Source: Acidobacteriota bacterium (GTDB taxonomy: Bacteria; Acidobacteriota; UBA890; WLXD01). Taken from it: a stretch of DNA of 64,000 nucleotides. This document shows positions 48,697-60,558 of this stretch, piece by piece (the stretch's first letter is position 1; every line of letters begins with the position of its first letter). Below the pieces are notes generated by a model. The model was not told the DNA's origin, ran no database searches, and saw only the letters and a program-made list of their open reading frames with translations. Position numbers and translations under genes: made by a program. The DNA is taken from contig CBDBHB010000008.1 in NCBI GenBank assembly GCA_965205505.1, positions 448,001-512,000 on the forward strand. The letters run 5' to 3'.

Positions 48697-48731
48697 GTCT
48701 TGGGTCCACCGTTCAGATCTGATGCCTATTA

Positions 48732-49009
48732 CTAGTGGCCTGTAACAGATGATCGTTGCATATCGTGGTGGCGAAATAGGTCCGGATGCCAGGCGCGACG
48801 ACGAGACGATGTTTGCCCATCGTGGAGGAGGAGCAACGCCGCAGACGGGCCGATTTCGCCGCCATCCTCCGGACAGATGGGCAGTTGCGGGCGATATCGG
48901 CGTTGCGCCTCGTCGACGATGCCCACTGCATCGCCTTCCTCCCCGCTCCTTGATCTCACCCGCAAATCCCATCTGCGATATGCAACGATCATCTGTTACA
49001 GGCCACTAG
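48732..49009. repeat. Structured element A (278 bp; CTAG + perfect 30-bp TIR)
   Basis: ctag-tggcctgtaacagatgatcgttgcatatcg at the left end, with its exact reverse complement at 48976-49009. Confidence 0.92.
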
Positions 49010-49063
49010 TCGTATTCATGGCTCTTGCCGAGCTCATTTGTTCCTAGCCGCGACTTCCGAGAT

Positions 49064-49160
49064 CGACCTGACCCCGTGGTTAGTACCCACTCTTATCTCA
49101 CCAACTCGGTGCTGACAAGATGAGACGAGAAGGCCAGCCACTTCGTGGGGTCGGTTCTGA
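49064..49160 (-). mobile_element. Diverged remnant of the IS3 (31235-32494) right end
   Basis: gacctgaccccgtggttagtacccactcttatctcaccaactcggtgctgacaag closely resembles the reverse complement of 32439-32493. Confidence 0.75.
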
Positions 49161-49164
49161 ACCC

Positions 49165-49285
49165 CACCCTCATCGGTCGTGAACTCTATGTTGCGTTCGG
49201 GCTCGACGGGCATGCTCGCTCCGTCCAGGAAGTCGCGACGGTTGATCTCCCGGCTCATGCCCAGCTCGCGGTCGCTCTTCTTCAA
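49165..49285 (-). pseudogene. Chimeric gene scrap: SpdH-like Tat leader fused to another gene fragment
   Basis: MKKSDRELGMSREINRRDFLDGAS (same leader as 56338 and 58410) followed by PERNIEFTTDEG. Confidence 0.65.
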
Positions 49286-49306
49286 ACGTCTCCTGGGGAA
49301 GAGCCC

Positions 49307-49585
49307 CTAGTGCTCCTGATCATAAGTACGGTGACGTTTGCAGGAGCGAGATGCGGGCGAGATCAAGGAAGGGTGAGGAAGGCGATGCCTTAGCCATCCT
49401 CGACGAACCCTGACGCCGAGATCGCCCGCATAACGCTCCTGCCCTCCGGGTGGCCGCGGGACCGGCCACCTTGGGCGTCGCGGCGCCTCGACGATACACC
49501 CAGCATCGCCCTCGTCGCCGCTCCTACAATTCGTCCCGGTCGCGCGCGCCACAAACGTCACCGTACTTATGATCAGGAGCACTAG
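49307..49585. repeat. Structured element B (279 bp; CTAG + perfect 30-bp TIR)
   Basis: ctag-tgctcctgatcataagtacggtgacgtttg at the left end, with its exact reverse complement at 49552-49585. Confidence 0.92.
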
Positions 49586-51057
49586 TCTTGATTGCGGATC
49601 GAGTACAGGCGGCTCTGAGTCCGCAGGAGCAAGCGATCACCGACGATGGCGGGCGAGGCGAGCGTCCACTCGTTCAGGTCGTTGATATGGGACAGCCGGT
49701 ACTCCCGGCCGGCCTCGATCACGAAGGTGTCGCCTTCCTCGCCCATCGCGAAGATCTTGCCGTTGTATGCCCACGGCGTTGTGGTAAACGCTCCGGCGCC
49801 CCGTGCGACGCGGGAGCGATACAATCGCTCGCCGGTCGCGACATCGTAACGGGCGAAGATGCCTTTCTCGGTGAGCACGTACAAAGCGCCGTCGTAGATG
49901 ATCGGCGTCGGCAGATACGTGCCGCCGGCGACAGGGTTGTACCAGACGACATACTCGTTCTTGTCCGCCGGCGCTTTCGGGGTGATGTCTCCCAACGCGC
50001 CCGGACGGATCGAAGCGATGGCCCTGTTTTGCTGTCCGGAGGACCCGGAGGTCACGAAGAGGTGGCCGCCCCAGACGAACGGACTCTGGATGGTCGTGGT
50101 CGCCATGCCGTGCATCCACCACAGCTCCTCGCCCTCCAGGCTATAGCTGATGACTGCGCGGGGTCCGACCGTCACGATCTCGGTGCGCAGCTCGTGCTCC
50201 CAAACGAAGGGCGTCGACCAGCCGGTCCTTCGCCCTTCGCCCAAGTCGCGCAGCGTGCGCCACAGCTCCTTGCCGGTCCGTTTGTCGAACGCGGCGATGA
50301 AGCCCTGCTCTTCGTTGTCGTTCAATACGATCACGCGGTCACCATGAAGCGCGGGAGATGCGCCGGTGCCGAAATCCCGGACCTTCTGAAACAGCTTCAA
50401 CGGCGTCGCCCACACCGGGTTCCCGTCCAAGTCGAAGGCGAAGAGCCCAAGGTGTCCTAAGTAGACGTAGACGCGCTCACCGTCCGTCACTGGTGTCTCG
50501 GACGCGAAGCTGTTCTTTCGGTGGCGCCCGCCCGGCGGGTTGCCGTGGTAGACCTGACGCTCCCAGAGGCGCGCGCCGCTCGCGAGATCGAAGCAGTAGA
50601 GCATCAGGTCGATTACGACCTCGTGTGGCATCTCGCGATCGCGCTCATAGAGCCGGTCGTTGGCCTCCTCGCTCGACAAACCCTCGGCGCGCAGCTCCGC
50701 GAGGTACTCATTACTGAAATCGGTCCCCAACGAGGGCTGCTTCATCGGCCGATCGCTGACGGCTGAAGTCAGGAAGACCTTGCCGTCCCAGACGATTGGC
50801 GAAGACCATCCGACGCCGGGTACCTCGATCACCCACTCGACGTTTTCGTTCGTCGACCACCGCTCCGGCAGCCTCGGGTTGTCGGCGATGGGGAGGGAAT
50901 CGGGCCCCAGGAAGCGAGGCCAGTTGTGCGTGGGCTTGTCCTCGTCAACGGCCTGGAGAGGACGTGCCCCGGTCGGAGCGGGAGGTTCCTGTCGGACTTC
51001 GGCAGCAACGCAGCCCACCGCGACCAGCAAAGCTACAATCGCCCGGCTAGCGCTCAT
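49582..51057 (-). CDS. PQQ-repeat beta-propeller protein (BamB-like)
   Basis: NWPRFLGP, GWSSPIVW, ASETPVTDGERVY, GWSTPFVW, LASPAIVGDRLLLRT. Confidence 0.88.
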   Translation of the reverse strand: MSASRAIVALLVAVGCVAAEVRQEPPAPTGARPLQAVDEDKPTHNWPRFLGPDSLPIADNPRLPERWSTNENVEWVIEVPGVGWSSPIVWDGKVFLTSAVSDRPMKQPSLGTDFSNEYLAELRAEGLSSEEANDRLYERDREMPHEVVIDLMLYCFDLASGARLWERQVYHGNPPGGRHRKNSFASETPVTDGERVYVYLGHLGLFAFDLDGNPVWATPLKLFQKVRDFGTGASPALHGDRVIVLNDNEEQGFIAAFDKRTGKELWRTLRDLGEGRRTGWSTPFVWEHELRTEIVTVGPRAVISYSLEGEELWWMHGMATTTIQSPFVWGGHLFVTSGSSGQQNRAIASIRPGALGDITPKAPADKNEYVVWYNPVAGGTYLPTPIIYDGALYVLTEKGIFARYDVATGERLYRSRVARGAGAFTTTPWAYNGKIFAMGEEGDTFVIEAGREYRLSHINDLNEWTLASPAIVGDRLLLRTQSRLYSIRNQD

Positions 51058-51318
51058 CGATCAGTCCTCCACGAATTCGGCGGCAATCCGATTGCTATTC
51101 ATGGGCCGCTGGTTTGCTCGAACCTGCCCGGGATCCACTGATTGTGCACGATCAGCCGCGGATAGCTGAGCCGGCGTGCCGATGGCCGCGCGGGTGCTAC
51201 GGGACGGATCAAAGAACGCGATGGGCGCACTCGATGCAATCGAGGATACGCCACCGGTTGTGGCGCACCGGCGCGTGCGAGAATGCCGCCGGCAACGTTC
51301 CCCACGCAGGAGGACACC

Positions 51319-52875
51319 TTGAACGGATACAGAGGTGCGATCGTGCCGATCGCCGCGGTGCTGCTGCTTATCGGAGCCGCGCAGCAGGGCCAACCCGGAG
51401 TCGATCAGGAGATGGTTGCGCGCATCCGCGAGGAGGGATTCCACCGCTCGCAACTCGCCGACACCCTCTCCTACATGACCGACGTGCTCGGCGCGCGCCT
51501 GACGCTGTCCGACGACATGAAGCGGGCACAGCGCTGGGCGATCGGTGAGATGGAGCGGATCGGGTTGCGCAACACAGTCATCGAGCCTTTCATGGACTAC
51601 GGCGTGAGCTGGGACAACGAGTACGTGTCGCTGCACATGATCGAGCCCGACTACCAGCCAATGGTGGGCTACCCGCTGACGCACACACCTGGCACGGAGG
51701 GTCGGCTCCGGCTGCAGGTCGTCCTCGCCGACGTGCGGATGCGGGGCGATCTCGAGCCGTTGCGCGGCCGACTCGGTGGCAAGGCCGTGCTTTCGACCCC
51801 GCCGGCGGTGATCGACCTGGCACGGCTGAACGCGGGCGTTCCGCGGCGGACCACCGAAGAGCTGCGGGAGATCGCCGGGGCCGCCGCCATCCCGCCGCGG
51901 CCGAGGCCTCGCACTCCGCGAAACCCGGACCTGCTGACCGACGACGAGCGGATGGCGTTCTACAAGGCCGAGGGCGCAACGCTGATGCTCGAGTCGCGCA
52001 GCGGCTGGCCGGGCGCGGTCCGTGGCTTTGCCCGGCCCGGCACCAAGGTCGACATGTGGGGACGCGACGAGAGCCTCGAGTCGCTGCCGATCGTCGCGGT
52101 AACACCCGAGCACTACAACCGTATGGTCCGTATCCGGCAGCGCGGCATCGATGTGGCGATCGAGGTGGAGATCCGCAATCGGATCGGCGCAGCGCGCCAG
52201 CAGGCGAGCAACGTGCTCGGCGATATCCCCGGCTCCGATCTCGCCGACGAGCTGGTGATGCTCGGCGCTCACTTCGACACCTGGCATGCGAGCCCCAACG
52301 CCGCCGACAACACGTCGGGCGTGGCGGTGATGCTGGAGGCCGCCCGGATTCTCACGGCGCTCGGCGTGCAGCCGCGCCGCACCATTCGCGTTGCGCTGTG
52401 GGCGGGAGAGGAGCAGGGTCTCTTCGGCTCACGCGAGTACGTCAAGCAGCACTTCGGCGACCCGGCCGACGCGAGCGTTGGGCGGACGCCGGCCTACGAG
52501 AAGTTCTCGGTGTACTTCAACCAGGACTACGGGCCGGGGCAGTACCGCGGCATCTACCTGCAGGGCAACGAACATGTGCGGCAGACCTTCGCGGCCTGGA
52601 TGGAGCCATTCCGCGACCTCGGCATGACCACGATCGCGTCGACCGGGGTGGGTAGCACCGACCACGTGTCGTTCGACAACGCCGGCCTGCCAGGCTTCCA
52701 GTTCCTGCAGGACCGCGCGGGCGGCACCGGCGGGCACACCAACCTCGATTTCTTCGACACGCTGCCGATCGACGACCTGATGAAGAACGCGGTGATCGTC
52801 GCAGCGTTCGTCTACCACGCGGCGATGAGCGACGAGCGCGTTCCGCGCAAGGACATCCCTAACAGGCCGTGGTGA
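51319..52875 (+). CDS. M28-family metallopeptidase
   Basis: LGAHFDTW, AADNTSG, WAGEEQGLFGS, FNQDYG, STDHVSF, HTNLD. Confidence 0.9.
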   Translation: MNGYRGAIVPIAAVLLLIGAAQQGQPGVDQEMVARIREEGFHRSQLADTLSYMTDVLGARLTLSDDMKRAQRWAIGEMERIGLRNTVIEPFMDYGVSWDNEYVSLHMIEPDYQPMVGYPLTHTPGTEGRLRLQVVLADVRMRGDLEPLRGRLGGKAVLSTPPAVIDLARLNAGVPRRTTEELREIAGAAAIPPRPRPRTPRNPDLLTDDERMAFYKAEGATLMLESRSGWPGAVRGFARPGTKVDMWGRDESLESLPIVAVTPEHYNRMVRIRQRGIDVAIEVEIRNRIGAARQQASNVLGDIPGSDLADELVMLGAHFDTWHASPNAADNTSGVAVMLEAARILTALGVQPRRTIRVALWAGEEQGLFGSREYVKQHFGDPADASVGRTPAYEKFSVYFNQDYGPGQYRGIYLQGNEHVRQTFAAWMEPFRDLGMTTIASTGVGSTDHVSFDNAGLPGFQFLQDRAGGTGGHTNLDFFDTLPIDDLMKNAVIVAAFVYHAAMSDERVPRKDIPNRPW

Positions 52876-52896
52876 AAGTGTGGTGGGCCTGGTTAC
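52859..52896. repeat. Solo end of a C-type structured element
   Basis: ctaacaggccgtggtgaaagtgtggtgggcctggttac matches the reverse complement of the right end of 55931-56209 with 2 mismatches. Confidence 0.8.
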
Positions 52897-53009
52897 CCAT
52901 AGCATCGTCAGCCGGCCCTCGCGAGCCACGCCACGTACTCCGCGTGATCGAGCACTGGTCTGCGGCCCTCCCTCGATACCACGAGCTGTTCGATCAACGC
53001 ACCGGCGGT

Positions 53010-54207
53010 TCAGCGACTGCCGAGAGCGTACAGATGCCCATCCGCGCTGCCCACATACAGCACGCCGTCGCGCAACACCGGTGAGGACAGGAACGCGCCG
53101 AGGTCGAGGAACATCTCCACCGCCGCGGCGGCTTTGTCTACCGTGTACCCACCGCCGAAGAGCTTCTCGGCATCCCAGCCGCCGTCCGGCAGCAGGATGC
53201 CGTGGGTGTCCTGCATGCTGGCGTCCGTACGAAACTGCCATCTGACGTCCCCGCTGACCGCATCGATAGCGAACAAGAGGCCGCCACAGGTTCCGATGTA
53301 GAAGGTCTCACCGACGATCGCCGGTGACGCGTAGATGCAGGTAGCCAGAGAAACGCCGAACAGCTCCTCGCCGGTCGTCGCGTCGATCGCGCGCAACATA
53401 TTGGTGTCTGAGGTGCCAACGTAGACGCGGTTACCGTAGATGGCGACAGAGCCCAGAACCCATGACCCGCTGGTGTCGAACTTCCACAGGGCGTCTCCGG
53501 TACGGGCGTCGACAACGTGCATGCCGCCGTCGCGGCCGCCAACGTAGACTCGGCCGTTGGCGATGACCGGCGAGGACTGCAGGCCGTGCTGGTTGTAATA
53601 GGTGGGGTCGACGCCGGCCTGGAAGTGCCAGCGCTCCTCGCCCGTGATGGCGTCCACCGCGTAGAGACGACTCTCCATATTGCCGACGTAGACGGTGCCC
53701 TCGGCAATCGCCGGAGTGGAGTGCATCGTGTCGGCCGTCTCGAACGCCCATCGCTCGGCACCGCTATGCGCATCGAGCGCATAAAGTACCCCCTCGCCGG
53801 TGCCGAAGTAGATGACACCGTCGGCGACCACCGGCGACGACAAGAAGAAATCCCACGAGTCGGTGTGCACCTCTCCTTGCGGGGTCATGCCATCGAGATT
53901 CGCGGCGCGCCAGCGGCGCTCGCCGCTGGGCTCGAACCTCCAGACGAGTGCGCCCGAGTCAGCATTCAAGGCGTAGAAGACACCGTCGTAGCTACCGAAG
54001 AAGACGAGCCCGTCGGCAACCGCGGGCGAGGAGCGCACCTGCCCGCCAGTTTCGAAGCGCCACGCCTCACGACCCGTTTCGATGTCGACCGCGTAAAGGG
54101 CGCCGTCGTCGCTGCCGAAATAGACCCTGTCACCGATCACCGCCGGCGAGGAAAGCACCCGCCCGCCGGTGGCAAAACTCCAGACAATGGAGGGCTCCTG
54201 CTCGACG
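53010..54207 (-). pseudogene. PQQ-repeat beta-propeller protein, 5' end deleted
   Basis: Repeated SSPAV...VYFGS.DG.LYA.D..TG...W.F units; the frame continues to about 54207 and collides with a YciI fragment. Confidence 0.8.
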
Positions 54208-54208
54208 C

Positions 54209-54442
54209 ATGGAGGCCTGGGGAAAATGGTTCGAGTCGATCGCCGACAAGCAGCTCGACCAGGGCGGTTTCAGCAGTGGGCGTGAGATCTCAAAAAGCGG
54301 AACCGAAGATCTGCCGTGGGGCATGGAGACCATCACCGGCTTCAATATCATCGAAGCCGAAGATCTCGACGCGGCGGAAAGAATCGCACAAGAAAACCCA
54401 TACATCGCAAGCATCAGGGTCTATGAAATTAGGTCGATGTAG
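54209..54442 (+). pseudogene. YciI/DGPF-like protein, 3' fragment
   Basis: [11 protein letters not shown]...ITGFNIIEAEDLDAAERIAQENP...IRVYE. Confidence 0.65.
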
Positions 54443-54558
54443 GCCGATGGCCCGACCCGGCGCGCGTCATCGTCACCGGCCTGCGGGCTCCTCAGGAGGG
54501 GGCTCCGCAGGCGCCGATCGGTCGAGTTCGACGGCAGAAGCGTAAGCGCGATCTTACG

Positions 54559-55335
54559 TTACTTGAGTGTCACCCAGATCAGATCGATCGTCGTGTCGCC
54601 GGTGTTCCCTGATTCGTGCTGCGCGCTCAGGGGAACCGCGTTCGACCACCCGACGGAGCCGGTCTTCGAGAACGGTGACGGATCGCGCTGCACGCCGCCG
54701 CGGCGTCCCGACCAGATGCCTCCCTTGATGTGGATGTAGACCTGGTTGCCGGGATGCGAGTGGATGCCCTCCCACTCACCGGGGCGGAGGTTGAACCGTT
54801 GTACGACGACACGCTCGTTCTCGAGGAGCACGTCACCGTCGGGATCTGCCAGGTTCGGGTAGGTCAACACAAACTGCGTGTCGGCAGCGGCAACCGGCCC
54901 ATCTTTCTTCAGCGTCACCCAGATCAGATCGATCGGGGCATCGCCGGTGTTGCCGGATTCGTGCCCCTCGCTGAGCGCGATCGGCTCCATCCAGCCCACC
55001 GAACCGTCCTCACGGGCGGCACCGGAGGTAGCCTCGCCTCCTCCTCTACGGCCTGACCATTGCCCGCCCTTGACATGCACGAAAACCTGGTTGCCGGGAT
55101 GCGAGTGGATCCCCTCCCACTCGCCCGGACCCACGACGAACCGTTGCACCACGACAAGCTCGTTCTCGAGCAGCACCTCGCCGCCAGGATTCGCGAGGTT
55201 CGGGTAGGTCAGCAGAAACTGCTCGTCGCTGGCGGCAGCAGGCGCCGGCTCGGGCCGCGTCACAGCTTGCTGACTACCGCCACAGGCGGCAGTGAGGAGG
55301 ATCAAGACAACGTTCAATATCAGGCTACGTCGCAC
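54559..55335 (-). CDS. Lipoprotein with two tandem near-identical cupin domains
   Basis: LTAAC lipobox; the unit VLLENE.VVVQRF...PGEWEGIHSHPGNQV...HESGNTGD..IDLIWVTLK occurs twice. Confidence 0.85.
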   Translation of the reverse strand: MRRSLILNVVLILLTAACGGSQQAVTRPEPAPAAASDEQFLLTYPNLANPGGEVLLENELVVVQRFVVGPGEWEGIHSHPGNQVFVHVKGGQWSGRRGGGEATSGAAREDGSVGWMEPIALSEGHESGNTGDAPIDLIWVTLKKDGPVAAADTQFVLTYPNLADPDGDVLLENERVVVQRFNLRPGEWEGIHSHPGNQVYIHIKGGIWSGRRGGVQRDPSPFSKTGSVGWSNAVPLSAQHESGNTGDTTIDLIWVTLK

Positions 55336-55423
55336 GGTTTTCTCCAGCGCACGATGAGGGGAGCGGGCTGGGGGCAATCGCAGGCGGCCCGCTCGCAGCT
55401 CGGTGTCGACCGCATGGACCGCT

Positions 55424-55843
55424 CTACATCCAGCCGAGCTCCTTCATCGCCCACGGGGCATTCCATATCTTGATCATGCGCTCCACTTCATCGCTCTCGT
55501 TCATGGTTATTACATAGACATAGTGCGTGTTCGTTTCTTTGTTGGTCGGAGGGACCGGACCACCGTCGCCAGTATGCGTGGCGTGGTACGTGGCGAAGAA
55601 AACCGCGCTTCTCGTCGCCTCGTCATAAGAAGAGGTGTGTAGGTCGTAGGTCGCGCCGGGAACTGTCACGTTGGCAAAGCCAGCCATCCACTCGCAGTAA
55701 GCCTCGACCGTGTGTATGTCGACCAGAGGTTCACTCTGCGCGGCGAACGTCGCACCGTCAGCGACATACTCCTTACAAGACTCCCATCCCGTTGCTGCGT
55801 CACAAGCCTTGAAGAATTTCCTGGCGTTGTCGAAAGCGCTCAT
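55424..55843 (-). CDS. SnoaL/NTF2-like protein
   Basis: FFATYHATHTGDGGPVPPTNK...YVYVI...M.KIWN. Confidence 0.8.
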   Translation of the reverse strand: MSAFDNARKFFKACDAATGWESCKEYVADGATFAAQSEPLVDIHTVEAYCEWMAGFANVTVPGATYDLHTSSYDEATRSAVFFATYHATHTGDGGPVPPTNKETNTHYVYVITMNESDEVERMIKIWNAPWAMKELGWM

Positions 55844-55930
55844 CCTCTCCTCCAATAGATGTTCGTGCTGCTCCGGAAGCGACCGGAATCCGGCGTATGG
55901 TATCCGGTGTGCGGGAGTGAGAGTATGACC

Positions 55931-56209
55931 CTAGCAGGCCGTGGTGAAAGTGTGGTGGGTCTGGCAACAGGGTCTTGCGAAGTGCAGGCAAGGAGAGAGG
56001 AGGAGGCGATGGTTACACCATCGTTGACGAGGAACGACGCAGCATACGCGCGCAACCCCCTGTCGCCCGAAGGGTTACGGCGAGTTGGGGCCATTTGCGG
56101 CGTTGGCCTTCCTCGACGATGGCTTGGGCATCGCCTGTGTCAGGCTGCCTTGCATCTGGCCCCAACTGGCCGTAACCAGACCCACCACACTTTCACCACG
56201 GCCTGCTAG
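55931..56209. repeat. Structured element C (279 bp; CTAG + perfect 30-bp TIR)
   Basis: ctag-caggccgtggtgaaagtgtggtgggtctgg at the left end, with its exact reverse complement at 56176-56209. Confidence 0.92.
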
Positions 56210-56337
56210 GTCTAGGGAGTCGCGATCACAGCCACTCGGGCGAGCCACTAGCCGACAGTCCTGACCGGTCCGCTCATGAGTAGCGGATCAACGCGATGCA
56301 GGCGTCAACCCGAGTGCGCGAAGACTGGAATGGGCGC

Positions 56338-58353
56338 ATGAAGAAGTCCGACCGCGACCTGGGGATGGACCGGGGGATCACCCGGCGCGACTTCCTGAAC
56401 GGCACCAGCGCAGCGATCGGCGGCGCGGGCGCGATCGGTGCGGCGGTGCTCCCGGGTGCCAAGGCCGCCGCGGCGGAGCCGCCCAGTACCTCTTCCGCCC
56501 GAACACCGTCGGCGCAGGCCTCGCCCGAGTCCGGGGTTTACTACCCGCCAAAGCTGACCGGGATGCGCGGCAGCCACGAGGGGTCTTTCGAGGTCGCGCA
56601 CGAGATGCGTTACGGGAAGACCTGGGACGAGGCGGAGGACACCGGCGAGAGCTACGATCTGATTGTCGTGGGGGGAGGGTTGAGCGGGCTGGCCGCCGCG
56701 TGGTTTTTCAAGAAAGGGCTCCCTGAATCGAAAGTGCTCGTGCTCGACAACCACGACGACTTCGGCGGCCATGCCAAGCGCAACGAATTCATGGTGAACG
56801 GCCGCCAGGTGATCGGCTTCGGCGGCACGATGTCGATCCACGGCGCCAACAGCTACACGTACGAGGCCAAGGCGCTGCTGGAGGAGATCGGCATCGACAA
56901 ACAGCGTTACCTGGCGACCACCGAGTCAGACCGCGGCCTCTACCGGAGGATGGGCCTGCGTCCGGCCGTGTTCTTCGACCGCGAGACATTCGGCGAGGAT
57001 CGGCTAGTGGTCGGGAGGCCGCGGCGGAGCTCCGATCCAGCCCGACCCGGCTCGCTCACCTGGGAGGAGTTCCTCGCCAAGACGCCGCTGTCCGACAACG
57101 TCAAGAAAGACATGCTCCGACTCTACGAGGGCAAGCGCGACTACCTCCCTGGCTTGTCGCTCGAAGAGAAGAAACAGCGGTTACGTAAGATCAGCTATCA
57201 GGACTATCTGCTCGAGGTCGTGAAGGCGGATCCGGGGGTGATCCCCTACTTCATGCGGCGGGGCGACGCCAATGGCTCGGCCGGGATCGACTCCTGTAGT
57301 GCCTGGGGCGCCCTCCGCACCGGGTGGTTCCCGGGCTTCGATGGGCTCGGGGTGGAACGACCGCCGCAGAGCTGGCTCGGCCCCGGCGACGACTTCGGCA
57401 ACAGCATCCACTTCCCCGACGGCAACGCCGCGGTTGCCCGGCTGATCGTCAGATGGCTGATCCCTAAGGCTCTCCCGGGCACGACGATGGAAGACTCGGT
57501 GGCGACGCCCGTCAACTATGCCGCCATCGACGAGGACGGAAGCCCGGTTCGCATCCGGCTCAACAGCACGGTGGTCAACGCCCGCCACGTCGGCGAGCGC
57601 CGCACCGCCAGCGAAGTCGAGGTGACCTACGTGCGCCACGGGAAGGCGCACCGTGCGCGCGGCGCAACCTGCGTAATGGCCTGCTACAACGCCATGATTC
57701 CCTATCTCTGTCCCGACTTTCCGGAGGAGCAGAAGGAAGCCCTGCACATGGCCGTGCGCAGGCCGCTTGTCTACACCAGCGTCGTGTTGCAGAACTGGAA
57801 GGCCTTCGAGAAGCTCGGCGTGGCGAACATCTACAGCCCAGGCGGATACCACGAGGTAATTGACTTGGACTACGGCCGAAGCCTCGGCGACTACCAGTGC
57901 GCACAGACGCCCGAGGATCCGATGGTGTTGCACCTGCAGCGCTTCCCGATCCACCCTGGGTTGACGGCCCGCGAGCAGTTCCGTGCCGGCCGCGAGGAGT
58001 TGCAGTCGACCTCGTTCGAGACCTTCGAGCGCAATATTCGTGATCAACTGGGCCGTGCCTTGGCGGATGGCGGCTTCGATCCGGCACGCGACATCGAGGC
58101 CATCACGGCGAACCGCTGGCCGCACGGCTACGCTGGCGGCGCCAACGACCTCTACGACCCCGAATGGGGATATGACGAGGTGCCCTGGGTTCGCGGCCGT
58201 CAGCGCTTCGGTCGCATCACGGTGGCCAACTCCGACGCCGGCGCCACCAGCTTGACCCACGCCGCCATCGACCAGGCACACCGGGCGGTGCAGGAGCTGT
58301 TGACCGACGTCATCCGTCCCGAGTTCCAGTACCCGTGGGCCGAGCGAACCTGA
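56338..58353 (+). CDS. Tat-exported FAD oxidoreductase, spermidine dehydrogenase (SpdH)-like, paralog 1
   Basis: TRRDFLNG, YYPPKLTGMRGSH, VGGGLSGL, DNHDDFGGHAKRNEF, HFPDGNA, NRWPHGYA. Confidence 0.85.
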   Translation: MKKSDRDLGMDRGITRRDFLNGTSAAIGGAGAIGAAVLPGAKAAAAEPPSTSSARTPSAQASPESGVYYPPKLTGMRGSHEGSFEVAHEMRYGKTWDEAEDTGESYDLIVVGGGLSGLAAAWFFKKGLPESKVLVLDNHDDFGGHAKRNEFMVNGRQVIGFGGTMSIHGANSYTYEAKALLEEIGIDKQRYLATTESDRGLYRRMGLRPAVFFDRETFGEDRLVVGRPRRSSDPARPGSLTWEEFLAKTPLSDNVKKDMLRLYEGKRDYLPGLSLEEKKQRLRKISYQDYLLEVVKADPGVIPYFMRRGDANGSAGIDSCSAWGALRTGWFPGFDGLGVERPPQSWLGPGDDFGNSIHFPDGNAAVARLIVRWLIPKALPGTTMEDSVATPVNYAAIDEDGSPVRIRLNSTVVNARHVGERRTASEVEVTYVRHGKAHRARGATCVMACYNAMIPYLCPDFPEEQKEALHMAVRRPLVYTSVVLQNWKAFEKLGVANIYSPGGYHEVIDLDYGRSLGDYQCAQTPEDPMVLHLQRFPIHPGLTAREQFRAGREELQSTSFETFERNIRDQLGRALADGGFDPARDIEAITANRWPHGYAGGANDLYDPEWGYDEVPWVRGRQRFGRITVANSDAGATSLTHAAIDQAHRAVQELLTDVIRPEFQYPWAERT

Positions 58354-60410: not shown

Positions 60411-60485
60411 TCGCCGCACCCCGAGCCCCATCGATCTCATGAGACAGGGCGCCGTCGGGGCTGGGATTGGGGAGAGACATCGCTT

Positions 60486-60558
60486 CTAGCAGGCCGCCTT
60501 GCATCTGGCCCCAACTCGCCGTAACCAGACCCACCACACTTCCACCACGGCCTGCTAG
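60486..60558. repeat. Internally deleted C-type element (73 bp)
   Basis: ctagcaggccg joined to ccttgcatctggcccc...cacggcctgctag; both CTAG ends retained. Confidence 0.88.

Follow-up and report, generated by a model that had tools for sequence, protein, structure and literature searches.

A family of CTAG-bounded elements of about 279 bp with a conserved double-hairpin core in an Acidobacteriota genome: probable IS630-type MITEs

The stretch of DNA analysed here, called the window throughout, comprises 64,000 nucleotides (positions 448001-512000 of contig CBDBHB010000008.1, C8) of an Acidobacteriota genome of 5.98 Mb that is 96.3% complete (G000). Three elements, A, B and C, lie in it (Table 1), each bounded by CTAG, and re-examination of the sequence bore out the coordinates and the lengths of 278, 279 and 279 bp given in the first-pass annotation. 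The inverted termini, CTAG included, were 100% complementary over 34 nt in B and 35 nt in C; in element A the arm extended over 44 nt at 91%, with a perfect inner stretch of 34 nt that includes CTAG. A perfect inverted run of 34 nt was present in all three elements, and these measurements agree with the CTAG bounds and perfect arms originally described. The right-hand CTAG of element B supplies the TAG stop of a PQQ_2-domain gene (49582-51057, minus strand), and element C is flanked by divergent ORFs at 55424-55855 (minus) and 56296-58353 (plus). When A, B and C were folded, each showed an outer stem and two internal hairpins. The z-scores obtained with RNA parameters were -12.6, -12.8 and -11.3 for A, B and C, respectively, with 0/200 shuffles folding as well, and element C gave a z-score of -11.2 with DNA folding parameters. 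All six hairpin halves contained the motif GASGA-N-GGCGATG-loop-CATCGTCGASGA-N5-RACGCC, and the central CCYNNGG linker was likewise found with all six, as had been claimed for the shared hairpin motif and linker.

Table 1. Positions of the elements, their parts and the additional type-C pieces within the window
Feature	Position	Strand	Length	Assignment or basis
Element A	48732-49009	.	278 bp	subfamily A (= G2 in clustering, 19 full copies)
Element A TIRs	48732-48765 and 48976-49009
Element A apical hairpin motifs	about 48800-48840 and about 48899-48941
Element B	49307-49585	.	279 bp	subfamily B (= G1, 24 full copies)
Element B TIRs	49307-49340 and 49552-49585
Element B apical motifs	about 49375-49417 and about 49474-49516
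Solo type-C left end	52859-52897	+		TIR match
Element C	55931-56209	.	279 bp	subfamily C (= G0, 46 full copies)
Element C TIRs	55931-55964 and 56176-56209
Element C apical motifs	about 55997-56040 and about 56099-56141
Internally deleted type-C copy	60487-60558	.	72 bp	CTAG-bounded; nhmmer match 60471-60558, TIR match

The window also holds two pieces of type C that had not been recorded previously. In the internally deleted copy, the initial 11 nt of the left TIR run directly into the distal part of the right half, followed by the right TIR. The solo left end consists of CTAA, a TIR with 2 mismatches and a few inner bases, followed by unrelated DNA, and an M28 peptidase ORF (51283-52875) ends inside it, with its final five codons and its TGA stop.

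The host genome contained 66 CTAG-bounded pairs of perfect arms. TIR matches amounted to 509, with 108 intact pairs of 270-285 bp, and the merged nhmmer matches gave 297 loci, 116 of them of at least 275 bp, totalling 54 kb or 0.9% of the genome. Full-length copies numbered about 120, and the subfamilies had 46, 24, 19, 11, 6, 4 and 4 full copies with a mean column identity of 95-99% (98.6% in subfamily B). The same TIR recurred across the copies of one subfamily, and among 74 CTAG-bounded copies the 34-nt TIRs were free of mismatches in 33 and had a single one in 14 and two in 12. The arm sequences do differ widely between types, the consensus TIR identity being 0.40-0.47, as stated in the first-pass annotation; its view of a free arm sequence, unlike ordinary MITEs, had to be abandoned, because each arm is a TIR specific to its subfamily (46 full copies for C, 24 for B and 19 for A), with IS630-family ISs bearing similar CTAG-bounded TIRs for A, D and G3. 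Family matches were found in 23 of the 41 genomes searched, the host included; excluding it, they occurred in 9/10 genomes of its own family and 11/15 of the sister family, and the element length was held near 279 bp across an order. A distant blastn comparison of element C with a plasmid collection gave no match. A description of the family was not found in the accessible literature on Acidobacteria MITEs and on IS630, CTAG or stop-codon MITEs, and the supplements to the MITE census PMC11602168 may list these elements.

Next, the sites occupied by the elements were compared with those of relatives. The orthologous position of element A in the sister species G004 was an empty site with a single CTAG, a kind of site that the first annotator had proposed to look for. 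Element B was not present at the orthologous flanks in relatives, and no copy of element C was found beside the orthologous left flank in G002, G003 and G004. Moreover, nested A+C composites of 552 bp were recurrent at 96-99% identity. Contigs of DNA sequencing runs broke at the repeat borders, with A and B in place in three runs, and no joint matching a clean excision of A or B was seen in them. Among 113 full copies, 71 ended in CTAG at both sides, 13 had xTAG...CTAy ends, where the outermost base alone differs, and 0 carried an identical non-CTAG 4-mer at both ends. Relatives displayed the same pattern (e.g., TTAG...CTAC and ATAG...CTAG pairs), and mutations had also hit T or A of the terminal CTAG in about a dozen copies. 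This end variation fits a duplication of TA, a 2-bp rather than a 4-bp duplication as we would read the ends, a CTAG empty site being compatible with both; alternatively, the 13 outermost-base variants could be point mutations. A gene's TAG stop was adjoined by 33 of 72 copies.

Comparison between TIR classes showed a graded identity, with values of 0.44 for the TIR, 0.52 for the lower stems and 0.79-0.83 for the apical motif, so that conservation is higher in the structured core than in the arms, as first proposed. Within subfamilies, variability also seemed greater in TIR columns than in the inner stems, but that count scored gaps at the ends of truncated matches as variants, and it was given no weight. 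In the core, the apical stem is invariant and contains a G.T wobble, the internal loops are rich in purines and the lower stems vary. In a set of 33 diverse copies, 91.7% of the cells were paired, versus 74.0% in shuffles and 34-48% with slid partners; both sides had changed in 41/60 inner-hairpin pairs, and 0/500 shuffles reached the covariation score, in line with the co-varying paired segments noticed at first inspection. The conserved G.T pair was present in 27/33 copies and its mirror in the other hairpin was A.C in 29/33, while the stem cells outside the conserved G.T were about 95% Watson-Crick and about 3% wobble. The unpaired purine-rich loops and the G.T mismatch were kept in 27-33 of the 33 copies, and because these are both kept and most conserved, at least the apical module appears to be under sequence selection. 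The relationships of TIR and core were discordant: G2 and G3 shared 0.87 of the TIR and 0.64 of the inner sequence, and G1 and G3 shared 0.53 and 0.77, respectively. One copy (L106) combined a left end of type B with a right end of type D. Exactly one core hairpin was retained in 25/32 short derivatives, 116 occurrences of the core motif were inside MITE loci and 12 outside, and Acidobacteriota MAGs other than this one carry the same core between TIRs of further types. With respect to the gene upstream, copies showed no preferred orientation (14:17, p 0.72). Judged from these alignments, the core module is kept across TIR classes and re-assorted between them.

The search for a cognate enzyme gave six DDE_3 matches in the genome, where the Pfam assignments were DDE_3 and HTH domains. 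None of the six was within C8:448001-512000, and the earlier statement that the window has no such enzyme stands. Two IS630-family elements of the host genome, IS-1 (1143 bp) and IS-2 (1185 bp), were both CTAG-bounded. The TIRs of IS-2 matched those of MITE type D/G6 at 22-24/30 positions, G3 at 20/30 and A at 18/30, and by eye its left TIR bore only a loose resemblance to type B. The right TIR of an IS630 element from the related genome G007 agreed with type G3 at 27/34 positions, counted by eye; nhmmer found no MITE similarity inside this IS. We also examined the best 80 of at least 598 metagenomic IS630 relatives: a TIR pair was found in 65, with CTAG at both ends in 63/65, and the TIRs of this set matched type D at up to 24/26 positions. 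For type C, by our own count, only about 10/24 positions were common to its TIR and the IS630 consensus. The type C/E terminus begins CTAGCAGG, that of type C being given as CTAGCAGGCCGTGG, and an autonomous element with a CTAGCAGG or CTAGGAG terminus was found neither in the host genome, nor in 26 genomes of the order (host included; queried with the IS-2 protein), nor among the best 80 of at least 598 metagenomic relatives. A CTAGCA or CTAGGA start was present in 0 of the 65 relatives from these best 80 that bear a TIR pair. DDE_3 matches were 0 in five MITE-rich relatives (G002, G003, G005, G011 and G012), which, like the missing partner of type C, counts against the IS630 reading. Beyond the TIR, comparison of IS630 ends with the MITE interior gave one marginal gapped similarity (z 5 among 56 comparisons), which was not counted as evidence. 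Two other candidate parents were discarded. TIR pairs 0.6-6 kb apart were considered, and the three loci with ORFs listed held, by eye, ordinary-looking non-transposase ORFs; a multicopy 1.4-kb element abutting MITE ends turned out to be an IS110-family IS inserted into the terminus.

Collectively, these data make it highly probable that A, B and C are non-autonomous, multicopy MITEs of IS630 type, moved in trans by DDE transposases of the IS630/Tc1-mariner type. Both the movement by IS630 enzymes and, for type C, an unseen partner are what we infer. The transposase would bind the roughly 34-bp TIRs, excise the element and insert it at the TA of a CTAG site with duplication of TA; because the duplicated TA is inside CTAG, CTAG would be rebuilt at both ends, and insertion into the TAG stop of a gene would preserve a TAG stop. 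The arms of A, B and C would differ because each subfamily has its own TIR, and the youth of the copies would account for the perfect match of the two arms in each. From the original alternative of structure-recognised non-autonomous elements or a bidirectional ncRNA, the non-autonomous mobile nature and the greater conservation of the core over the arms are retained, and the REPIN/RAYT link and a catalogued ncRNA are not. Arms matching the TIRs of a resident IS together with a catalogued core, or a lack of covariation, had been named as arguments against that proposal; some arms do resemble IS TIRs, but the core is uncatalogued and its covariation significant.

Other routes of transposition were weighed against the IS630 reading. 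A 4-bp duplication by an IS5-superfamily enzyme would account equally well for the CTAG at either end and for the lone CTAG of the empty site; it would make the elements MITEs that duplicate the whole CTAG, and IS5 itself duplicates a CTAG-like 4-mer. We nevertheless consider this very improbable, since the sole DDE_Tnp_1 element in the genome has unrelated, non-CTAG ends (GGCGTTGGTGCATGGCTC...) without similarity to the MITEs, DDE_Tnp_1_2 and DUF772 had no match in the genome, and no copy had matched non-CTAG 4-mers at its ends, the 13 variants being of the xTAG...CTAy form. The internal hairpins pair imperfectly, and both the mismatch and the bases flanking them are conserved; in this they resemble those read by Y1 transposases, which would suggest a REPIN-like system whose RAYT (Y1 HUH) transposase recognises the hairpins as single-stranded DNA. 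PMC3733652 also puts on record, for some Acidobacteria, Y1 transposases flanked by long TIRs. However, the RAYT family PF01797 had 0 matches in G000, at 96.3% completeness, and was positive in six control genomes, the TIRs of the elements are long and perfect, insertion is at CTAG and duplicates the target, and the core motif is almost never outside TIR-bounded elements (12/128). The REPIN/RAYT analogy drawn in the first-pass annotation thus lacks its Y1 transposase in this genome, and we regard it as scarcely credible. The CGTC-tagged REPs, described in PMC3733652 with 8-9 bp stems, 4-5 nt loops and no TIRs, were likewise rejected as this element.

Two further readings of the conserved core were weighed. 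The element might also, or even mainly, work as a structured RNA module: transcribed in 3' or 5' UTRs, the outer 34-bp stem and the two GA-loop hairpins would stall exonucleases coming from the 3' end, act as terminators for both directions of transcription or serve as a binding site for an RNA-binding protein of the host, and selection for this would preserve the core. Such a module would explain the strong covariation alongside conserved unpaired purine-rich loops. The conserved G.T (27/33) is a legal G.U in RNA, and its mirror is A.C (29/33), therefore the 5' hairpin is well-formed on either strand; G.T exceeds A.C 50 to 31 on that strand, although this excess is marginal and drawn from related sequences. 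The 33/72 copies at a gene's TAG stop abut it and therefore would be co-transcribed, but the copies do not favour either orientation with respect to the gene upstream (14:17), and they are lineage-specific insertions rather than conserved orthologous sites. Type A and B sequence was detected in one metatranscriptome run, as contigs only, from a library that may contain DNA and with the flanks of A uncovered; these are other copies, because 4-5 letters differ, and thus transcription of the loci in the window was not shown by them. Wobble pairs, at about 3% of the stem cells, are rare for an RNA helix. Rfam gave 0 matches at the gathering score over the window and, over 48700-49620, two chance-level miRNA models (E 5.5 and 6.1), so that the structured ncRNA first suggested corresponds to no catalogued one. 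Its kink-turn-like loops likewise found no clear support: in the alignment, read by eye, the tandem GA dinucleotides face each other on both sides of the apical stem, with only a 1-nt spacer on the 5' side, none on the 3' side and no 3-nt bulge separating stem and GA, and the classical geometry is not evident. Taken together, we think an RNA module unlikely. There is also little probability, in our estimation, that the hairpin covariation is a by-product of mutation, with template switching between quasi-palindrome arms during replication keeping the pairing without function. Nearly all stem pairs are Watson-Crick, wobble intermediates are few, and the arms are short and close, the geometry where quasi-palindrome correction is known, yet correction of this kind would remove the unpaired loops and the G.T mismatch as well, and these are kept in 27-33 of 33 copies.

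As for what the core does within IS630-type MITEs, our best guess, carrying somewhat under half of the weight, is that it acts in cis at the DNA level, where extruded or single-strand hairpins may help the mobilisation or the tolerance of the element; the alternative would be a function as RNA. More broadly, and tentatively, the double-hairpin core might be a functional, selected nucleic-acid module whose apical stem is sequence-specific and carries a fixed G.T wobble, with variable stems bearing GA-rich loops, and which has lasted across Acidobacteriota while being re-assorted onto at least eight TIR types. Selection would then act on the hairpin module as its unit, with the TIRs as interchangeable handles for whichever transposase is present. 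A conserved factor, from the host or the transposase side, might recognise the module in cruciform DNA, in a single-strand hairpin or in RNA; we hold this whole reading as possible but doubtful.

Known IS630/Tc1-mariner ISs include IS630 of Shigella and ISY100, and their bacterial MITEs include RUP of pneumococcus and Nezha of cyanobacteria. The present elements resemble the MITEs of this group in the TA-in-CTAG target with a probable TA duplication, in TIRs that start directly after TA, and in being small, non-coding and multicopy; CTAG-bounded autonomous IS630-family elements of 1.14-1.2 kb with TIRs like those of types A, D and G3 occur in the same and related genomes. Unlike IS630 MITEs, here the internal sequence and not the TIR is best conserved across subfamilies, element length varies little around 279 bp throughout an order, the search for a partner of the largest subfamily (C) came up empty, and there is no clear IS similarity beyond the TIR, with one marginal gapped match. 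The Correia elements (CREE) of Neisseria are TA-flanked, with long TIRs, long and short internal-deletion forms and a conserved internal site for the host factor IHF; they have known effects as transcribed structures cut by RNase III, and they are not known to have a transposase of their own identified. The elements described here share with them the TA flanks, the long TIRs, the long and short internal-deletion forms and, for type C, the lack of a known transposase; however, there is no sequence relation, and the conserved interior is a covarying hairpin pair instead of an IHF site. Like REP/BIME and REPIN, they contain two hairpin units in inverted orientation whose unpaired bases are conserved and whose stems vary, and they are abundant and mostly intergenic; unlike these, they occur in a genome with no RAYT match, are bounded by long TIRs, target CTAG with duplication of the target, and have a hairpin tied to the TIRs.

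For annotation, these elements make up about 1% of the genome and are placed at stop codons and synteny breaks, where they rebuild or replace gene ends and interrupt assemblies of short reads; they are best masked and given a name instead of being annotated as RNA genes or regulatory palindromes. Their termini act as landing pads for the IS110-family element and provide a natural target set for its site choice. For the biology of mobile elements, the odd point is the reversed conservation, with a conserved core and variable, re-assorted ends, and a second one is the large subfamily, type C, without a visible transposase. If the core is needed for mobilisation or tolerance, this family would be a clear bacterial case of a MITE with a selected internal structure.

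Re-extraction of the three CTAG-bounded elements A, B and C confirmed the positions and lengths reported in the first-pass annotation, and their inverted termini, including the CTAG, were perfect over 34-35 nt, as claimed. In the predicted fold of each element, an outer stem encloses two internal hairpins, and the proposed common hairpin motif was found in all six halves. Folding with RNA parameters gave z scores of -11.3 to -12.8, a stability reached by none of 200 shuffles; with DNA parameters, element C gave a z score of -11.2. No Rfam family matched the window at gathering score, and a search of 48700-49620 at E up to 10 returned just two miRNA matches, at chance level. The window also holds two fragments of type C, and an M28 peptidase ORF extends five codons into one of them, a solo terminal inverted repeat (TIR), from which its TGA stop comes. 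Between A and B lies a short ORF that matched no Pfam family; its internal ATG begins a twin-arginine-like leader (MSREINRRDFLDG...), synteny with the sister species G004 is lost just past it, and it may be the stub of an exported-protein gene.

Coordinates and sizes of the elements and associated features (window numbering unless a contig is named; G000, source genome)
Feature	Location	Length	Remark
Element A	48732-49009	278 bp	CTAG at both ends
Element B	49307-49585	279 bp	CTAG at both ends
Element C	55931-56209	279 bp	CTAG at both ends
Internally deleted type-C copy	60487-60558	72 bp	
Solo type-C end	52859-52897		
M28 peptidase ORF	51283-52875		
ORF between A and B	49034-49285, minus strand	83 codons	
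A+C composite	G000 C8:899343-899894; C9:2938806-2939357; C8:236954-237505; others	552 bp	
Neighbouring MITEs, example	G000 C9:1253466-1254019		One shared CTAG
IS630 copy with MITE (L033)	G007 C1:169400-170900		One shared CTAG
Hybrid copy (L106)	G000 C9:1431017-1431294		
IS-1		1143 bp	IS630 family, CTAG-bounded
IS-2		1185 bp	IS630 family, CTAG-bounded
IS110-family element, example	G000 C8:237482-238907 (L022:583-2008)	1.42 kb	

Next, the 5.98-Mb source genome (9 contigs) was scanned. There were 66 CTAG-bounded pairs of perfect inverted ends, whose arms sorted into few recurrent sequences, and 509 TIR matches with up to 6 mismatches, and 108 intact pairs of 270-285 bp. A full-element profile detected 297 distinct loci (116 of at least 275 bp), totalling 54 kb or 0.9% of the genome. 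Clustering of 120 full copies gave subfamilies C (46 copies), B (24), A (19), G3 (11), G4 (6), G5 (4) and G6 (4), with mean column identities of 95-99%. This recurrence of arms across few multicopy subfamilies shows that the variable yet perfect arms of A, B and C are ordinary, subfamily-specific TIRs of young copies, and the earlier idea of a free arm sequence did not hold. In some loci, the apical loop of a type-A element was interrupted by a type-C variant, and the copies of this composite were 96-99% identical, indicating that the composite itself was copied.

The elements are mobile. A search of relatives for empty sites, proposed in the first-pass annotation, showed that the flanks of A join at a single CTAG in G004, and neither element nor CTAG was found at this site in the related genome G002. 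For element C, the genomes G002, G003 and G004 showed no counterpart next to the orthologous flank. A gene with a PQQ_2 domain takes its TAG stop from the right CTAG of B; G004 likewise has TAG as that codon, although the tetranucleotide there reads CTAA and no element is present. Among 113 full copies, 71 had CTAG at both ends, 13 had xTAG...CTAy ends, with the outermost base alone differing, none had an identical non-CTAG 4-mer at both ends, and 11 had a junction with another insertion sequence (IS), a 1.42-kb IS110-family element. Older copies in relatives had end pairs such as TTAG...CTAC. These ends fit a TA duplication with CTAG preference, the habit of IS630, whereas the lack of matched non-CTAG 4-mers does not fit a 4-bp CTAG duplication; the xTAG...CTAy ends may alternatively reflect point mutation of the outermost base. 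Of the 72 CTAG-bounded copies, 33 adjoined a gene-like ORF at its TAG stop, versus 585/5428 other CTAG sites. Such an excess would follow from target choice combined with selection against insertions within genes; orientation relative to the upstream gene was random (14:17).

Element ends serve again as insertion targets. In the related genome G007, an IS630 copy and a type-C-like MITE stand head to tail at L033 and three further sites, with one CTAG in common, and neighbouring MITEs in the source genome likewise share a CTAG. The IS110-family element has 28 full copies in this genome, none within the window, and by our own count from the flanks about 20 of them have inserted into the end of a MITE of type A, G3 or G6, with ...AGGCCAC on one side and TAG on the other; the others have sites with only (A)GGCCAC|TAG in common. 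Its Transposase_20 domain scored above the cut-off and DEDD_Tnp_IS110 just below, and the transposase of the tabulated copy reads as two overlapping ORFs. The ends of MITEs serve this element as a set of ready targets.

As transposase candidates, the source genome offered six DDE_3 matches, all within two IS630-family elements, IS-1 and IS-2, whose transposases carry DDE_3 and HTH domains. The suggested likeness to REPINs was abandoned, since the genome search gave no Y1/RAYT gene; DDE_Tnp_1_2 and DUF772 also had no match there, and the sole DDE_Tnp_1 element was rejected as a relative, its ends being unrelated to the MITE ends. The TIRs of IS-2 agreed with G6 at 22-24/30 positions, with G3 at 20/30 and with A at 18/30; by eye, its left TIR resembles B and its right TIR resembles type D, grouped with G6. 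An IS630 element in G007 encodes a protein 64% identical to that of IS-2, and the right-hand TIR of this element agrees with G3 at 27/34 positions, counted by eye. Among the best 80 of at least 598 metagenomic IS630 transposase relatives, a TIR pair was recovered for 65, 63 of them CTAG/CTAG, and type D matched these at up to 24/26 positions. Collectively, these matches make an IS630 partner plausible for arms of the CTAGTG type, namely A, D, G3 and, more loosely, B. None of the 65 pairs started with CTAGCA or CTAGGA, and no partner for type C, the largest subfamily, was found in the source genome, related genomes or these best 80 relatives. DDE_3 had no match in G002, G003, G005, G011 and G012, relatives that contain 16 to 59 element-C matches each.

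Full-length relatives of element C (72-97% identity) were present in 23/41 genomes, source genome included. Leaving it out, 9/10 genomes of its own family had a match, as did 11/15 of the sister family and, with weak matches only, 2/15 drawn from the phylum's other families. When contigs representing one genome per species were scanned for exact matches to a core-motif pattern, at least 113 stretches were recovered. The 80 matches listed were mostly in MAGs titled Acidobacteriota, Terriglobia or Thermoanaerobaculia; six loci belonged to MAGs under other labels, and 0/5 of these checked had a full profile match. One of them (L119, in a MAG titled Chlamydiota) does contain a 283-bp TA-bounded element with CTAGGAG-type ends. 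Among the matches listed, the core was also flanked by other TIRs, e.g., CTAGGAGCCCGTCCGAG, CTAGTGGTCTGATTCACG and CTAAGGGCCTGTGAC, in elements of 277-304 bp.

The core was then analyzed in 33 diverse copies from 13 genomes, with outer arms excluded. Paired cells accounted for 91.7%, versus 74.0% in shuffled alignments and 34-48% with slid partners; 41/60 pairs changed on both sides, and 0/500 shuffles reached the covariation score; covariation was thus strong. The lower stems varied freely, and the apical 7-bp stem GGCGATG/CATCGTC, flanked by conserved GA-rich bases, was almost invariant, with a G.T pair in 27/33 copies and A.C at the mirror position of the other hairpin in 29/33. Between the CTAGCAGG and CTAGTG classes, identity was 0.44 for TIRs, 0.52 for lower stems and 0.79-0.83 for apical motifs, in agreement with the claim that the core is better conserved than the arms. 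The motif was nearly confined to the elements (116 inside, 12 outside), and 25/32 short two-ended derivatives retained exactly one hairpin. TIR and core relationships conflicted: identities were 0.87 (TIR) and 0.64 (inner) for G2-G3, G2 being subfamily A, 0.53 and 0.77 for G1-G3, G1 being B, and 0.55 and 0.85 for G3-G6. Along with the hybrid copy L106, which has a type-B left and a type-D right TIR, this shows that arms and cores have been re-assorted.

Besides the fixed G.T, stem cells were about 95% Watson-Crick and about 3% wobble; these few wobbles and the random orientation lean more to DNA than to RNA as the constrained molecule, in the form of a cruciform or a single-strand hairpin. Leaning the other way, towards a core constrained as RNA, G.T exceeds A.C on the GA strand (50:31), a small excess among related sequences. 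Template-switch correction of quasi-palindromes could maintain pairing without selection, but it would not keep the unpaired loops or the mismatch. From these patterns, the core appears to be under selection at the level of the element lineage, and most likely, though with low confidence, serves the mobilisation or tolerance of the element in cis. No published description of this family was found in the literature searched. The A/B/C-type elements are very probably IS630-type MITEs, an ordinary kind of element, and what sets them apart is a type C for which no partner was found and a conserved hairpin core that has been re-assorted among arms.
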